Counted from the first letter of the stretch, positions 35,240 through 41,773 are shown. The stretch is DNA of 64,000 bases from an uncultured Acidobacteriota bacterium (GCA_963804995.1 CAWDSK010000002.1:544001-608000), one strand, 5' to 3'. The notes: generated by a model not told the origin, from the letters alone. Numbers and translations: made by a program.

Positions 35240-36112
35240 TCAAAGCCGTCCGAACACGCGCACCGCTTCCTCGATGGATTTATGTTGCTCGATGACGGGG
35301 TACATGGAATGCTCTTTGAAGTCCATCTGCTGAGCCAGGGCCAGCACCTGCGTCAACTGGTCTTGCGGAACCACCACCACGCCATCACTGTCCGCCACCA
35401 CCAGATCGTGGGGGTTAACCGGAACGCCATCACAGGTAATCGGAATGTTGGCGCCGGCGAAGCGGTAATGATTCGCGGAAGTAGAGGGCACGGGGCCGAG
35501 CGCGTAAACGGGAAACTGGATCTTCCTCAGGTAAGCGGTATCACGCACTCCACCATCGATGACGGCCCCGGCAAAATCGCGTGCGGACATGGCGGTTCCC
35601 ATCAGCCCACCCATGCCGGCGATGTCGGCTCCGTCTTCGACGGACATGACGTAAACTGAGTTGGGAGCGCCTTGGTCAATCGCGGTGAGCATGCCGTTGA
35701 GCGCCTGCGATCCCTGTCCTTCTTGTTTCTTCAAAGCCACGGTGACGGCGTAGCCGGCAAATTTGGCCGTAAAAATGGGCTGCATCCGATGCGTCATGTA
35801 CATTCGGCGTCCAGTGATTTGTTCCAAAGCGTCGGAAACCGAGGCCACTTCCACGTGACGGTATGCCTCCAACAGGGCTTCAGCGGACGCGCCGGGGCCG
35901 GGATTGGCGGCGAGCGGCGGGATAGTCACAAGCCGGGCTCCCCGGTGCTGGGCAGGCGAAACAAGCCCGGCAGTTTCAGAAGTCATAGTGGATCGGGTTG
36001 GTTGCAGTTGCGCGAATAAGAGCCATCCTTTTACGAGCAGCCCTCCCGCCAGGCAAGCCGTGGCCAGGAAAGCACAACGCTTCAGGTTGAGGTGCGAAAG
36101 CGGTAGTTTCAC
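35240..36112 (-). CDS. RraA/HMG-aldolase family protein with signal peptide
   Basis: VSDAL, GGLM, IDGGVRD, DLVVADSDGVVVVP. Confidence 0.8.
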   Translation of the reverse strand: MKLPLSHLNLKRCAFLATACLAGGLLVKGWLLFAQLQPTRSTMTSETAGLVSPAQHRGARLVTIPPLAANPGPGASAEALLEAYRHVEVASVSDALEQITGRRMYMTHRMQPIFTAKFAGYAVTVALKKQEGQGSQALNGMLTAIDQGAPNSVYVMSVEDGADIAGMGGLMGTAMSARDFAGAVIDGGVRDTAYLRKIQFPVYALGPVPSTSANHYRFAGANIPITCDGVPVNPHDLVVADSDGVVVVPQDQLTQVLALAQQMDFKEHSMYPVIEQHKSIEEAVRVFGRL

Positions 36113-36257
36113 GGGGTCCTCCAGATATCAGTGGTTTCACTCGATACAATGGCAAAGGTTAGCGATTATAGCCCACAGGCGCAACGGGGTTCGGAAGATT
36201 TGTGAAGTGATTAATCGTGGTTTCGGTCTTCCTGCTAAAGGGTGAGGGGTCAGTTTT

Positions 36258-36382
36258 GTAGCGCGGTCCCCCGTTTTTGGGGTCCGCGGCTCTTCATCTG
36301 AAAACTCTAAACCCGGCCGTGGTTTCTTCACATTCGTTCAAATGGCGCGCGAAGAACCGCAGACCTCAACGGCGGAGGTCTG
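36258..36382. repeat. REPIN family A, 5' part, interrupted by the intron (3' part resumes at 38296)
   Basis: GTAGCGCGGTCCCCCGTTTTTGGGGTCCGCGG...CCGCAGACCTCAACGGCGGAGGTCTG|. Confidence 0.9.
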
Positions 36383-38295
36383 GTGCGCCGGGATAAACCG
36401 GCAGAAAGCAGAGAATGAAAATTTCTCACGAGGAAGGAGCAGCGATCCACTCGGCCCCGAGTTTTGCGCTGGGCGTCGTGAGGCGCACGGTGAAGCGTAA
36501 ACAGGGGAATAGGTGGGCTGGGTATTGAGCTTCGAAAATGTCCAATCAGGACGCCGACGTTTTCAGACTAAACGGAAGGCAACATGAGGCCGGGACGCCA
36601 ACGCGAGTTCCGGCACAGTCCTGCGTAGTCGTAGACCCCAGACACGCCTAGACACTTTCTGCACGAGAACCGGGAGACCTCGGAGGCGCCGGCCGCCGTA
36701 GATCGTGGCCGGACGGCGGGAAAAGGCGATGGCCGTACAGCCCGCCTGCACGCTTTCGAGGAGTCGGACAGCGGAACAGTACCGATGAATCATTTGAACA
36801 AAGACGGGAAGCCGTTGGCGGAGAATGAGGAGGGAAGGCCGCTGATCAAGGAGAACACCCGTTGGCCTAACACGCACCCGACACAGAGCGGGGCACGCGT
36901 GTCCCAGGGACTCGCGGGTGTGCGGAAAGCCGCGAAGGAACACAGGGAGATGAAGTTCACGGCCTTGCTCCACCACTTAACGGTCGATCTGCTGCGGGAA
37001 AGCTTTTACGCCTTGAAGCGAAAAGCTGCACCGGGAGTAGACGGCATGACGTGGCAGGAGTATGAAAGCGGGCTGGAAGGTCGACTCGTCGATCTGCACA
37101 GCCGGGTCCACCGCGGAGCATTCCGAGCGAAGCCCTCGCGAAGGGCGTATATCCCGAAAGGCGACGGGCGGCAACGTCCGTTGGGGGTTGCGGCACTGGA
37201 GGACAAGATCGTCCAACAGGCCGTGGTCACCATCCTCAAGGCGATTTACGAGGAAGACTTTCTGGGCTTCTCGTATGGCTTTCGACCGGGACGCAGCCAG
37301 CATCAAGCGCTGGACGCGCTCTCGTACGCGCTCACGGTGAAGCACGTGAACTACGTTCTTGACGCGGACATTCGTGGATTTTTCGATTCGATATCCCACG
37401 AATGGATGCTCAAGTTCGTGCAGCATCGCGTCGCCGACCCCCGGATTCTCCGGCTCATCCAGAAATGGCTGAAAGCCGGGGTGAGGGAGGAAGGCGAATG
37501 GTCGGAGACGGAGATGGGTACGCCACAAGGGGCGGTGGTCTCGCCCCTGCTGGCGAATATCTATCTGCACTACGTCTTTGACCTGTGGGTGCAGGCGTGG
37601 CGCAAGAAGCACGCCCGGGGAGACGTGGTCGTGGTGCGGTATGCCGACGATACGGTCCTTGGATTCCAATCGCAGACGGAAGCCGACCGCTTTCTGGAGG
37701 ATTTCCGGGAGCGGGTGGGGAAGTTTGGATTGGAACTGCATCCTGACAAAACGCGCCGGATCGAGTTCGGGCCGTTTGCCGAACTTTACCGGAAACGGAG
37801 AGGAGAAGGTAAGCCGGAGACGTTCGACTTTCTGGGCTTCACGCATATCAGCGGGAAGAACCGGAGGGGGCAATTTACCGTGAAGCGGAAGACGATCAGC
37901 AAGCGCCTGCGGGGGAAGTTGCAGGAACTCAAGCAACAACTCCGGCAGCGTCGGCACGATCCCATCGCGGATACGGGTAAATGGCTCCGGTCGGTCGTGC
38001 AAGGCTACTTCAACTATCACGCGGTACCGGGAAACCTCGACCGCCTGCGAATCTTTCGGGAACGGTTGACCCGACTGTGGCGAACACAACTGCGTCAACG
38101 CAGTCAACGCCACCGCCTCAACTGGGACCGACTGGGGAAGCTTGCGGCCTGCTGGTTGCCTGCTCCGCACGTTGTGCATCCTTGGCCATCCCAACGGTTC
38201 GCCGCCACACATCCGAGATAAGAGCCGTATGCGCTAACCAGCGCACGTACGGATCCGTGCGGGGGGTACCGGGTAACCGGTATCCCTACCGCAAC
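36383..38295 (+). mobile_element. Full-length group II intron (IIB-like, probably bacterial class E)
   Basis: 5' GTGCG; domain V GAGCCGTATGCG...CGCACGTACGGATC at 38222-38255; domain VI ending AAC; exon rejoin restores GGAGGTCTG|CGCTAC. Confidence 0.93.
36785..38221 (+). CDS. ltrA: Group II intron reverse transcriptase/maturase without endonuclease domain
   Basis: APGVDG, IPK.DGRQRPLG, SYGFRPGRS, GTPQG, RYADD, FDFLGF; ends after domain X. Confidence 0.95.
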   Translation: MNHLNKDGKPLAENEEGRPLIKENTRWPNTHPTQSGARVSQGLAGVRKAAKEHREMKFTALLHHLTVDLLRESFYALKRKAAPGVDGMTWQEYESGLEGRLVDLHSRVHRGAFRAKPSRRAYIPKGDGRQRPLGVAALEDKIVQQAVVTILKAIYEEDFLGFSYGFRPGRSQHQALDALSYALTVKHVNYVLDADIRGFFDSISHEWMLKFVQHRVADPRILRLIQKWLKAGVREEGEWSETEMGTPQGAVVSPLLANIYLHYVFDLWVQAWRKKHARGDVVVVRYADDTVLGFQSQTEADRFLEDFRERVGKFGLELHPDKTRRIEFGPFAELYRKRRGEGKPETFDFLGFTHISGKNRRGQFTVKRKTISKRLRGKLQELKQQLRQRRHDPIADTGKWLRSVVQGYFNYHAVPGNLDRLRIFRERLTRLWRTQLRQRSQRHRLNWDRLGKLAACWLPAPHVVHPWPSQRFAATHPR

Positions 38296-38914
38296 CGCTA
38301 CACCCCTTGGCCATCCAGGGAGGAACGGTCAGCAAACCACTGAGCGTGGCTACCCGCTGCTCCGTAGCGCGGTCCCCCGTTTTTGGGGTCCGCGGCACTT
38401 CATTTGAAAACTCTAAACCCGGCCCTGGCTTCTTCACATTTGTTCCAATGGCGCACGAAGAACCGCAGACATCAACGGCGGAGGTCTGCGCTACACCCCT
38501 TGGCCATCCAGGGAGGAACGGTCAGCAAACCACTGAGCGTGGCTACCCGCTGCTCCGTAGCGCGGTCCCCCGTTTTTGGGGTCCGCGGCTCTTCCTTTGA
38601 AAACTCGAAAATCCTAAACCTGGGTGACGGTTTCTCCGCCACGCTACATTTGGTGAAATGACACACGAAGAACCGCAGACCTCAACAGCGGAGGTCTGCG
38701 CTACACCCCTTGGCCATCCAGGGAGGAACGGTCAGCAAACCACTGAGCGTGGCTACCCGCTGCTCCGTAGCGCGGTCCCCCGTTTTTGGGGTCCGCGGCA
38801 CTTCATTTGAAAACTCGAAAATCCCAAACCCGGGCGGCGGTTTCTTCGCCTCAATACATTTGTTTCAATGGCGCCCGAAGAACCGCAGACCTCAACGGCG
38901 GAGGTCTGCGCTAC
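38296..38914. repeat. Tandem array of family A REPINs with family B half-arms (units begin 38364, 38557, 38767)
   Basis: Periods of 193 and 210 bp; near-identical arms and linker, diverged related spacers. Confidence 0.9.
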
Positions 38915-38969: not shown

Positions 38970-40175
38970 TCAGAGAAGGCCGAAGCGAAGGAGCAGGAGC
39001 CCCAGGCAAAAGGCGGCCAGCATCCCGCCTCCAAAAATCATCAACTGCGACCGCATCTGCATCATGATGTTGACGCCCGGCCGGGTCAGGGCGGAAATGA
39101 GGTAGGTGGGTTCATTTGCCCCCTTGTGAATCAGATTGCGGTCACTCAAATCCTTGGCCGCGGGATTCTGGGCGCACGTACCGCTGATATCGTAGTCATG
39201 GTCAGGCAGGATGCAACACTCGGTGAGGCGATACCGGCCGGAAGCGAGCGGGTGGTCGGGCGAGAATGGGGGGTCGGCAGCCGGCAGTGGATCGACAGCG
39301 GGCGGACTGGCAACCGGGGCTGCCCCATCGCTCCTCGGCGGGTCCGGCTGAGGCAGGGCAACACGACTGACCAGGCCCAGCTTTCTATTCCGGTCTTGCA
39401 TTTGGACGATGCGTTGTCTCAGCTCATCGTATTTGGGATCCCAGAAAGGATACTTATTGAGTTCGATCAGGGCGAGTCGGACTTCCTCTCGGCGGGGATC
39501 GGACAATGGCCCTTCGGCCTCCAGCCCTTGTTGCATCTTCGCCCGCATCTGCACCACCTGGGGCCCGAGCAACCCCTGGAACAGCTCTTCCTGGGTGCTT
39601 TGATGCTTCATATACTTGGCTATGGCGTCATGCGCCCCTACCATTCCGAGAGGGTGATGGAGTCCCTGTATCTTGGGGGTCATACCCACGCGCGCCACGT
39701 AGGCGAGTAAATCCCGGTCGGAAACGCCGCCGACGGCGAGGCTCGAAGCCGTCGTGCTCGAGACCTCACGCCTCCCTATCATCTCCAGCTCGTACTCTGC
39801 GCCGCGCGGATTCACCATCACGCGCCCCGTGGCGTCTTCGAGGTAGAACCAGTCGCCGTCAGCCGCCGCCCCATAATGCGACCATATTCCGCTGTCCTCC
39901 CCTCCCTCACTATCCTTCCTTTTCTCCCATTTCTCGATCTCGACCGTATAGAAACAGCAGGGAGTGTGACTGACGGGGCTGCTCGCGAGCCGGTCGCTCT
40001 TGGCCTTGCCGTGAATTCGCACGAAGCCCATGGCGAGGCTGCGGATGGGCGTCCCCGGCGTGTCCTGAAGCAGGCGAGACTCACGGTAGATACGGAACCC
40101 CCGGAAAAACGTTCCCATCCCGCCGAAAAACCCCACCACCAGCCCGATATCGAGATTATTGATATGCGCCGCCAT
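38970..40175 (-). CDS. GIDE-domain-like membrane protein
   Basis: N- and C-terminal TM helices; DTP.TPIRSLAMGFV.I.G, SP.S..PC..Y, FYLEDATG. Confidence 0.6.
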   Translation of the reverse strand: MAAHINNLDIGLVVGFFGGMGTFFRGFRIYRESRLLQDTPGTPIRSLAMGFVRIHGKAKSDRLASSPVSHTPCCFYTVEIEKWEKRKDSEGGEDSGIWSHYGAAADGDWFYLEDATGRVMVNPRGAEYELEMIGRREVSSTTASSLAVGGVSDRDLLAYVARVGMTPKIQGLHHPLGMVGAHDAIAKYMKHQSTQEELFQGLLGPQVVQMRAKMQQGLEAEGPLSDPRREEVRLALIELNKYPFWDPKYDELRQRIVQMQDRNRKLGLVSRVALPQPDPPRSDGAAPVASPPAVDPLPAADPPFSPDHPLASGRYRLTECCILPDHDYDISGTCAQNPAAKDLSDRNLIHKGANEPTYLISALTRPGVNIMMQMRSQLMIFGGGMLAAFCLGLLLLRFGLL

Positions 40176-40382: not shown

Positions 40383-40546
40383 ACTTTCGGGAAGTAGCAC
40401 AATATTCTTGCTAAAAAAACAAATTACAGTATTGCATTGCAGAGTGTATGCCTTTTTGACGCTTGACGGGGTAACCCGGATTCGCTGGAGGTTATAAGTG
40501 GTGATCAGTAGTGGCACTCAACGAGCGAACAACCGCAGACCGGTCC

Positions 40547-40694
40547 GTAGCGCGGTCCCCCGTTTTTGGGGTCCGCGGCTCTTCATTTGGAAGTTCGATA
40601 ATCCTAAACCTGGGTGACGGTTTCTCCGCCACGCTACATTTGGTGAAATGACACACGAAGAACCGCAGACCTCAACAGCGGAGGTCTGCGCTAC
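40547..40694. repeat. REPIN family A
   Basis: Same arms; 3' spacer identical to the array unit at 38557. Confidence 0.9.
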
Positions 40695-41038: not shown

Positions 41039-41296
41039 ATGCACAGAACCCATCTGCGTAAGGTCGGCGGCTCGGTCATGCTGGCGGTACCGCGCGCCGT
41101 GCTCGACCTCCTGCGCTTGCGGCCGGGAGTACAGGTCGGCCTTGCAATCGATCGCGGCCGGCTGGTGGTGGAACGGCAAAAACGCCCCCGCTACACCCTG
41201 ACCGAACTGCTCGCCCAATGCGACTCCAAGGCCCGGCGCACTAAGGAAGAACGGGAATGGCTCCGTAACAAGCCTGTGGGTCGGGAGCTGATCTGA
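41039..41296 (+). CDS. pemI: PemI antitoxin
   Basis: LRKVGGSVML.VP, RP.Y.L.ELLAQCD, EEREWL. Confidence 0.9.
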   Translation: MHRTHLRKVGGSVMLAVPRAVLDLLRLRPGVQVGLAIDRGRLVVERQKRPRYTLTELLAQCDSKARRTKEEREWLRNKPVGRELI

Positions 41297-41628
41297 TGAG
41301 ACGTGGTGATATCTGGTTGGTGGGGCTTGATCCAGCCGAAGGGCACGAGCAAAAGGGTCGACGCCCTGTCCTGATCATCTCGCCCGATGCTTTTAACCGG
41401 GTCACCAAGGTGCCCGTGGTTCTCCCCATCACCAGCGGGGGAAGTTTCGCGCGGACCGCCGGATTTGCGGTATCTCTGACCGGCGCCGGCACCAAAACCA
41501 CCGGCGTTATCCGCTGCGACCAGCCCCGCGCGCTGGATCTCGCCGCGCGCCACGGCCGAAAGTTGGAAAACGTACCCGATGCGATCCTGGACGAGGTTTT
41601 GGCGAAGGTAGCAACAATTCTTGAGTAG
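41296..41628 (+). CDS. pemK: PemK/MazF endoribonuclease toxin
   Basis: RGDIWLV.LDP..GHEQ.G.RPVLI, FARTAGFAVSL, RCDQPR. Confidence 0.92.
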   Translation: MRRGDIWLVGLDPAEGHEQKGRRPVLIISPDAFNRVTKVPVVLPITSGGSFARTAGFAVSLTGAGTKTTGVIRCDQPRALDLAARHGRKLENVPDAILDEVLAKVATILE

Positions 41629-41773
41629 CGCGGTCCCCCGTTTTTGTGGGTCCGCGGCTCTTCATTTGAAAACCCGGGAATCCTAAGTCTGGGCGATGGT
41701 TTCCCTGCCACCCTGCATTTATTCAAATCGGGCACGAAGAACCGCAGACCTCAAGGGCGGAGGTCTGCGCTAC
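41625..41773. repeat. REPIN family A
   Basis: Its GTAG cap supplies the pemK TAG stop. Confidence 0.9.

Follow-up and report, generated by a model that had tools for sequence, protein, structure and literature searches.

A class E-like group II intron that probably retrohomes into acidobacterial REP sequences through its exon-binding guides

A group II intron in the genome of an uncultured acidobacterium appears to retrohome into REP sequences by means of its exon-binding site (EBS) guides. We take it to be a class E-like element without an endonuclease domain (En-minus) and a parasite of REPINs, for which the hairpin of the REP is probably incidental, and we put the probability of this reading at roughly two in three. 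The intron, intact and 1913 nt long, occupies positions 36383..38295 (+ strand) of the window, which is the whole 64,000-nt stretch of DNA that was analysed, and is one of 40 near-identical copies in a genome (G000) of 7.55 Mb in nine contigs.

The intron begins with GTGCG at 36383 and ends with CGCAAC at 38295, between the exon sequences GGAGGTCTG and CGCTAC, just as the original prediction had placed its ends and junction. The group II hallmarks are present (5′ GUGYG, 3′ AY, a domain I core, domain V, and domain VI with a bulged A), domains V and VI being assigned by inspection, and the Rfam model group-II-D1D4-6 matches at 36418-36638 with 170 bits. Domain V (38222..38255, +) has 34 nt and an AGC triad, and domain VI (38259..38295, +) carries A38288 as the putative branch point together with the 3′ end. 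An intact ORF in domain IV (36785..38221, +) encodes a reverse transcriptase (RT)/maturase of 478 aa with YADD at 37640-37651; it scores 347.6 bits against TIGR04416 (cut-off 300), and RVT_1 is its sole Pfam match. No HNH/endonuclease domain was found in this ORF in Pfam and NCBIfam profile scans, and the ORF ends 40 aa past the RT/maturase match. By pairwise comparison only, the RT shares 57% identity (317 aa) with the disrupted RT of plasmid pRmeGR4b and 35% with the other RT found there; this plasmid is described as the carrier of S.me.I4, a disrupted class E intron from Sinorhizobium meliloti GR4 (PMC5894124). Class E (IIE) membership is likely, not proven. Reported idiosyncrasies of IIE and IIF RNAs are an α′ at a stem-loop tip, an extra bulge and a 5-nt domain V loop (PMC3753933); here the domain V loop reads as 4 nt, or as 6 with the closing pair opened, rather than 5.

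The intron splits a REPIN. The left REP (36258..36296, +) is GTAG-tagged, belongs to family A and has the other stem variant. The 5′ exon (36351..36382, +) is the complementary (iREP) strand of the right REP, with IBS2 in the loop at 36370-36374 and IBS1 (GGTCTG) at 36377-36382, and the 3′ exon CGCTAC (38296..38301, +) holds IBS3 (the C), the last two bases of the stem and the GTAG complement. Read on the tagged strand, the insertion point lies two bases past GTAG, which is thereby split from its stem. In the mosaic array of ~200-nt units downstream (38302..38914), three family A REPINs, all vacant (junctions 38488, 38698 and 38908), alternate with hairpins that belong to a third REP-like family (38312-38355, 38505-38548 and 38715-38758). 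Vacant family A REPINs also lie at 40544..40694 (junction 40688) and 41625..41773 (junction 41767), and all five vacant sites that had been predicted are present. Between the last two, at 41039-41628, a small ORF and a PemK/MazF-like ORF likely form a toxin-antitoxin pair.

Across the genome, REP motif copies number 202 + 120 for family A, with T or C at -2, and 63 for family B. The target REPs have a tag at the hairpin foot, occur as inverted doublets and have many intergenic copies; 526 of 561 hairpin sites lie outside genes according to a crude gene caller. The tag of family B is CTGG, not GTAG, and CTGG-tagged REPs were not found in the available text of PMC3733652. Three of the 14 Y1-transposase matches in the genome have REP motifs nearby, and the RAYT scan, which took in these three, found that each passes the RAYT model NF047646. 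A family A array stands directly behind the RAYT gene on contig C5, and one family B motif adjoins that on C6. Copies of the intron also sit inside REPs of these RAYT loci themselves (C5:56440-58920 and C6:720305-722854), co-oriented with the RAYT gene, ~50 nt before it on C5 and just behind it on C6.

Covariation with the exons locates the guides. Homologues were collected from relatives, genome contigs and metagenomes; close ones (E ≤ 1e-150) occur in 41 of 133 genomes of the family, a tally that includes three unpublished genomes, which enter into none of the other claims. From 67 introns with both ends, 43 were non-redundant (RT identity 64-100%) and served for EBS1 and EBS3. EBS1 is CAGACT at 36564..36569 (+), in the loop of the d3 hairpin 36558-36574, which had been predicted from the sequence and takes the same place in the Rfam alignment and in a computed fold. 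It forms five Watson-Crick pairs and one G-U pair with GGTCTG, as proposed, and its bases (intron positions 182-187) pair with exon -1..-6 in 37-41 of the 43 homologues per position where 11-15 are expected; the guides of sister introns likewise match REP variants, as in L028, L047, L168 and L170, where EBS1 is TGGCTA and the site is GGTAGCCA|C, in a third REP family. EBS3 had been predicted at G36575, a placement that we reject because this base is G in 43/43 homologues although the first 3′-exon base varies (C 29, A 7, G 4, T 3). G36631 (+; position 249) covaries with that base instead, with 39/43 Watson-Crick pairs against 22.6 expected, its partner here being the first 3′-exon C. EBS2 is TGTCC at 36539..36543 (+), whose bases 1-3 (positions 157-159) covary with exon -9..-11. 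Among 54 non-redundant introns of 158 found, this register gives 120/162 Watson-Crick pairs, where shuffling yields 52.6 on average (maximum 73) and neighbouring registers yield 62-83. Kin are not independent in any of these counts, which are thus no exact probabilities, yet the register-specific excess remains large. The IBS2 partner falls in the loop of the REP hairpin. EBS2 of class E introns is reported to be dispensable for splicing, with a homing role that has only been suggested (PMC3753933), and the covariation here supports such a role.

In the more distal exon, A is favoured at -12, -13 and -14 (30, 31 and 26 of 46 guide types) in homologues with unrelated guides, which points to a determinant read by the protein, like T-15, the distal exon determinant of RmInt1 (PMC4615759). 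The expectation that the homologues' exons would prove to be REP arms was borne out in part: most homologues sit at non-REP sites, but the guides that they carry there are different ones, which supports the guide model while confining REP targeting to a few lineages.

The 40 copies in the genome comprise 39 of full length and one cut by a contig end. They are 99.6-100% identical, with a mean pairwise difference of 3.6 nt, and one has a one-base insertion in the ORF. The junctions of the 39 full copies read GGTCTG|C in 32 cases, GGTCCG|C in four and AGTCTG|C in one, the other two having no readable 5′ flank (contig edges), so that RGTCYG|C is found at 37/37 full copies with a readable flank. 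With respect to the genes beside them, copies and vacant sites did not clearly differ in orientation. Recurring differences among the copies are few and occur in all combinations, for which gene conversion or assembly polishing are possible causes; no genealogy of the spread was therefore drawn from intron haplotypes. That the intron is active now, or was until very recently, is probably the best explanation of the copies' sequences. For reads, 20 public runs were found and the contigs of four aligned to the locus, with a depth of 0 at the unique flanks 35600-36204 and 38988-39108; among the joints listed for these four runs (18 more are unlisted), none skips 36383-38295, the unique flanks being uncovered. 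Contigs of runs X1-X3, from peat and sediment metagenomes, join ~36905-36926 to 38198, which points to ORF-deleted derivatives of the intron family.

The many vacant REPs of the same genome act as natural controls, and they bear out the proposal that EBS1 adapts the intron to a REP target present in many copies: all copies lie in REPs, and perfect matches are preferred. In the favoured orientation, REPs with a perfect EBS1 match are occupied/vacant at 32/38 and those with one mismatch at 4/50 (Fisher p = 2e-6). C at -10, the centre of EBS2 pairing, is present at 35/36 occupied and 70/88 vacant favoured-orientation sites (p = 0.013); within perfect-EBS1 REPs the effect of the three-base EBS2 core was not significant (27/5 vs 25/13, p = 0.10).

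Strand is a second control. Being a palindrome, the REP presents identical IBS1, IBS3 and stem whichever strand is read, and all copies lie on the strand that ends in CTAC/CCAG; perfect-match sites on the GTAG strand are used in 0/125 cases, 85 of them in favoured orientation. The two strands differ in the loop and the distal bases, and only 10 of all 344 GTAG-strand sites fit EBS2. Orientation also follows replication. Judged by contig-level GC skew, which is weak for contigs C1 and C9, 39/40 copies are co-directional with the fork vs 88/217 vacant sites (34/40 vs 104/209 by local skew), and on C2, which has five copies, their orientation reverses at dnaA (C2:124231). The predicted preference for a single-stranded target is in keeping with this, as 39/40 copies fit priming on the lagging-strand template; targeting of that template at the fork is supported by the strand bias.

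Base pairing alone leaves the choice of site unexplained. Seventy-five non-hairpin sites in favoured orientation match EBS1, the EBS2 core and EBS3, and all are empty; 31 are intergenic and the rest lie sense-in-gene by the crude gene caller. When AA at -15/-14 is required as well, only 2 of the 75 remain, so that sequence and structure are inseparable in this genome.

The folded hairpin might be recognised along with the sequence, EBS2 or the protein docking on the loop as a toehold and EBS1, a mimic of the 5′ arm, displacing the stem in a structure-assisted manner reminiscent of IIC introns. We think this unlikely, although several observations fit it: IBS2 lies in the 7-nt loop of a 10-bp hairpin (-11.6 kcal/mol on the iREP strand), hairpin sites (≥ 9/10 arm pairs) make up 35/37 scorable occupied junctions vs 209/1436 vacant GGTCTGC sites, and the use of non-hairpin guide matches is 0/75. 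Stability, however, does not separate occupied from vacant REPs (p = 0.59), and the equally stable hairpin of the GTAG strand (-12.3 kcal/mol) is never used. Relatives speak against it too. Only 3/37 scorable non-redundant homologues are in a hairpin, 34/37 of the sites listed being outside (score ≤ 7), and this makes a hairpin requirement improbable. Same-guide introns also occupy non-hairpin sites (L044, L166 and L203). By eye, the flanks of L044 (genome G043) resemble domain I of another group II intron, a possible twintron.

A sister intron in genome G005, 92% identical, bears on the same question. Its EBS1 is CGGACT, and C stands at -2 in 6/6 copies, in a genome that holds both REP variants (14 and 31 vacant); this match of guide and REP variant is consistent with guide-directed choice but weak alone. 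Five of the six targets mismatch EBS1 at -4, which makes the stem weaker as well, whereas 31 perfect sites stand vacant (p = 0.006-0.02, commonest mismatch). It looks as though in G005 the stem stood in the way.

A very improbable alternative is that many guide-matching sites receive insertions and that purifying selection then spares only the copies in harmless intergenic REPs. The intergenic location of most hairpin sites (526/561 by the crude gene caller) and the genic location of the majority of non-hairpin matches would suit it. Against it, the 31 intergenic non-hairpin guide matches are empty while ~45% (32/70) of perfect-match REPs are filled, and a mean difference of 3.6 nt between copies leaves scant time to purge all others.

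It is hardly tenable, and already largely refuted, that a few ancestral insertions were multiplied passively by RAYT or recombination copying intron-bearing REPINs, for although one pair of copies has an identical 60-nt upstream flank, tandem copies stand at the ends of contigs C6 and C7 and copies adjoin two RAYT genes, the other flanks all differ (35 distinct among 36 copies), two REP families (22 copies in family A and 14 in family B, among the 36 with both flanks) and both stem variants are occupied, three of the four intron haplotypes common to several copies span both families, and the GTAG tag that E. coli TnpA-REP needs (PMC3479197) is split from its stem. The distinct flanks, together with haplotypes that span both families, indicate that the copies arose from separate homing events.

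Under the preferred reading, retrohoming by guides, a spliced RNA-protein particle would reverse-splice into the single-stranded lagging-strand template at the replication fork, a step suggested by the strand bias. The iREP strand would be read by its sequence, through three pairings that covariation shows: EBS1 takes the six stem bases leading up to the junction, EBS3 the C at +1 and EBS2 a purine-C-purine in the REP loop. The further determinant would most likely be protein contacts with distal exon bases, for example the A-rich -12..-15. REPs would be used because they hold the guide-matching letters and are maintained by RAYT at about 200 intergenic places. In E. coli, binding and cleavage by TnpA-REP are reported to need the GTAG tag at the hairpin foot, the complementary iREP being left unbound (PMC3479197); by analogy, the intron would enter the strand that RAYT leaves free. 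Insertion sets 1.9 kb between GTAG and the stem, and a filled REP should then fail as a RAYT substrate, which would make the intron a parasite of REPINs. Of the idea that the intron rides on REP/RAYT proliferation, what stands is the supply of targets by the spread of REPs; carriage by RAYT is not supported, given the distinct flanks, the haplotypes in both families and the separated tag.

Guides for other repeats recur among the relatives. In an RT tree of 51 rows (quick method, unrooted, no class references, one long row, L019), an 18-row subclade with support 97 has CAGAC/CGGAC-type guides at four or more positions, mingled with guides that fit a non-palindromic intergenic repeat; this repeat has 45 copies by pattern in this genome, 42 of them intergenic. 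A neighbour carries TGGCTA, aimed at the third REP family. More distant homologues have other recurring insertion sites. Short relics of sister introns are present in this genome at C5:460087, C2:652257, C1:206552, C6:842676, C1:441114 and C9:36920-36979; one 5′ piece directly follows the third REP family end GGTAGCCA|, two follow the non-palindromic ATGTTG..GAAAA repeat, and the others are at unrelated sites. These relics suggest possible earlier waves at other repeats.

We offer tentatively, as a conjecture that we find attractive rather than probable, that a Terriglobia class E subclade consists of repeat-hoppers. Changing about nine guide bases would open up a new family of short non-coding repeats (here REP families A, B and a third, plus the non-palindromic intergenic repeat), bursts would run close to saturation of the usable sites, and 5′ relics would be left behind. 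In REPs the intron would enter the strand not bound by RAYT, the loop serving as an EBS2 toehold that opens the stem, and by splitting off GTAG it would cull REPINs, acting as both hyperparasite and regulator.

Several other arrangements were seen among the homologues. L147 (G061:C3:1-9500) is a row of four or more 1904-nt introns in tandem, separated by ~40-nt repeat units, every unit being filled, and L052, L155 and L156 (G068) are head-to-tail dimers in which the 3′ end of one intron runs straight into the 5′ end of its neighbour, as is described for RmInt2. A large clade at 73-79% identity (L083-L085, L098, L107, L108, L113, L116-L119, L130, L131, L136 and others) has a recurring site such as AATCGCCATTACA|CTCAT, which we take to resemble an 11-6-11 tyrosine-recombinase site. 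The exons of L186 and of L063/L080 look like the T-arm and acceptor end of a tRNA. L031, L032, L036, L037, L067, L159, L165, L176 and L203 start with GAAAGCG, GTAAGCG or GATAGCG, not GTGCG; their 5′ end is two bases longer, a boundary backed by EBS1 pairing in most.

The class E introns S.me.I4 and Cl.be.I2 resemble this intron in lacking the En domain and in using EBS1, EBS2 and EBS3 (PMC5894124, PMC3753933); the difference is that here there are 40 copies in one genome, all in REPs. RmInt1 and RmInt2, En-minus class D introns of S. meliloti, also home into multicopy mobile elements (ISRm2011-2 and the inverted repeats of ISRm17), use EBS1-3 plus distal exon bases and show a lagging-strand template bias, but they have another RT class, IS targets of 4-13 copies and 7-10 intron copies (PMC5894124, PMC4615759). 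In contrast, the target of the present intron is a short palindrome of ~200 copies, with IBS1 and the junction both inside the stem.

Class C (IIC) introns, found at terminators and attC sites, are likewise En-minus and enter hairpin-forming intergenic DNA, but their EBS1 pairing is 3-4 bp, EBS2 is absent and an upstream stem-loop is the signal (PMC4424553, PMC7923331), whereas here EBS1 has 6 bp, EBS2 covaries, the cut falls within the stem and most relatives are not at hairpins. IIC membership was rejected on EBS1 length, the presence of EBS2 and the rarity of stem-loop insertion across the family (3/37). The REP-targeting insertion sequences ISPpu9, ISPpu10, ISPsy8, ISPa11, ISRm22 and IS1397 share a fixed position in the REP and the same ecological strategy, but they are DNA transposases without an RNA-intron mechanism, and the P. 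putida group II intron was reported to be associated with REPs in only 2/9 cases (PMC1525189). Our literature searches turned up no REP-programmed group II intron, although intron database papers or supplements may hold one, and no introns in REPs in the available text of PMC8919778 and PMC3733652. The mechanism is standard retrohoming; what is new is the class of target, the copy number and the switching of guides among repeats.

As a recently active, naturally retargeted En-minus intron, judged from its sequence, this element may be a candidate tool for Acidobacteria. One genome offers 40 filled sites beside several hundred vacant ones, with differences in strand, in the loop and at individual stem bases. 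This amounts to a natural selection experiment, through which the target rules of class E introns, the purpose of EBS2 among them, can be tested directly. REPINs, whose known users have until now been DNA transposases, would serve an RNA-guided retroelement as a renewable landing site, and with ~45% of the best-matching sites in favoured orientation filled, the finding bears on the population dynamics of REPINs.
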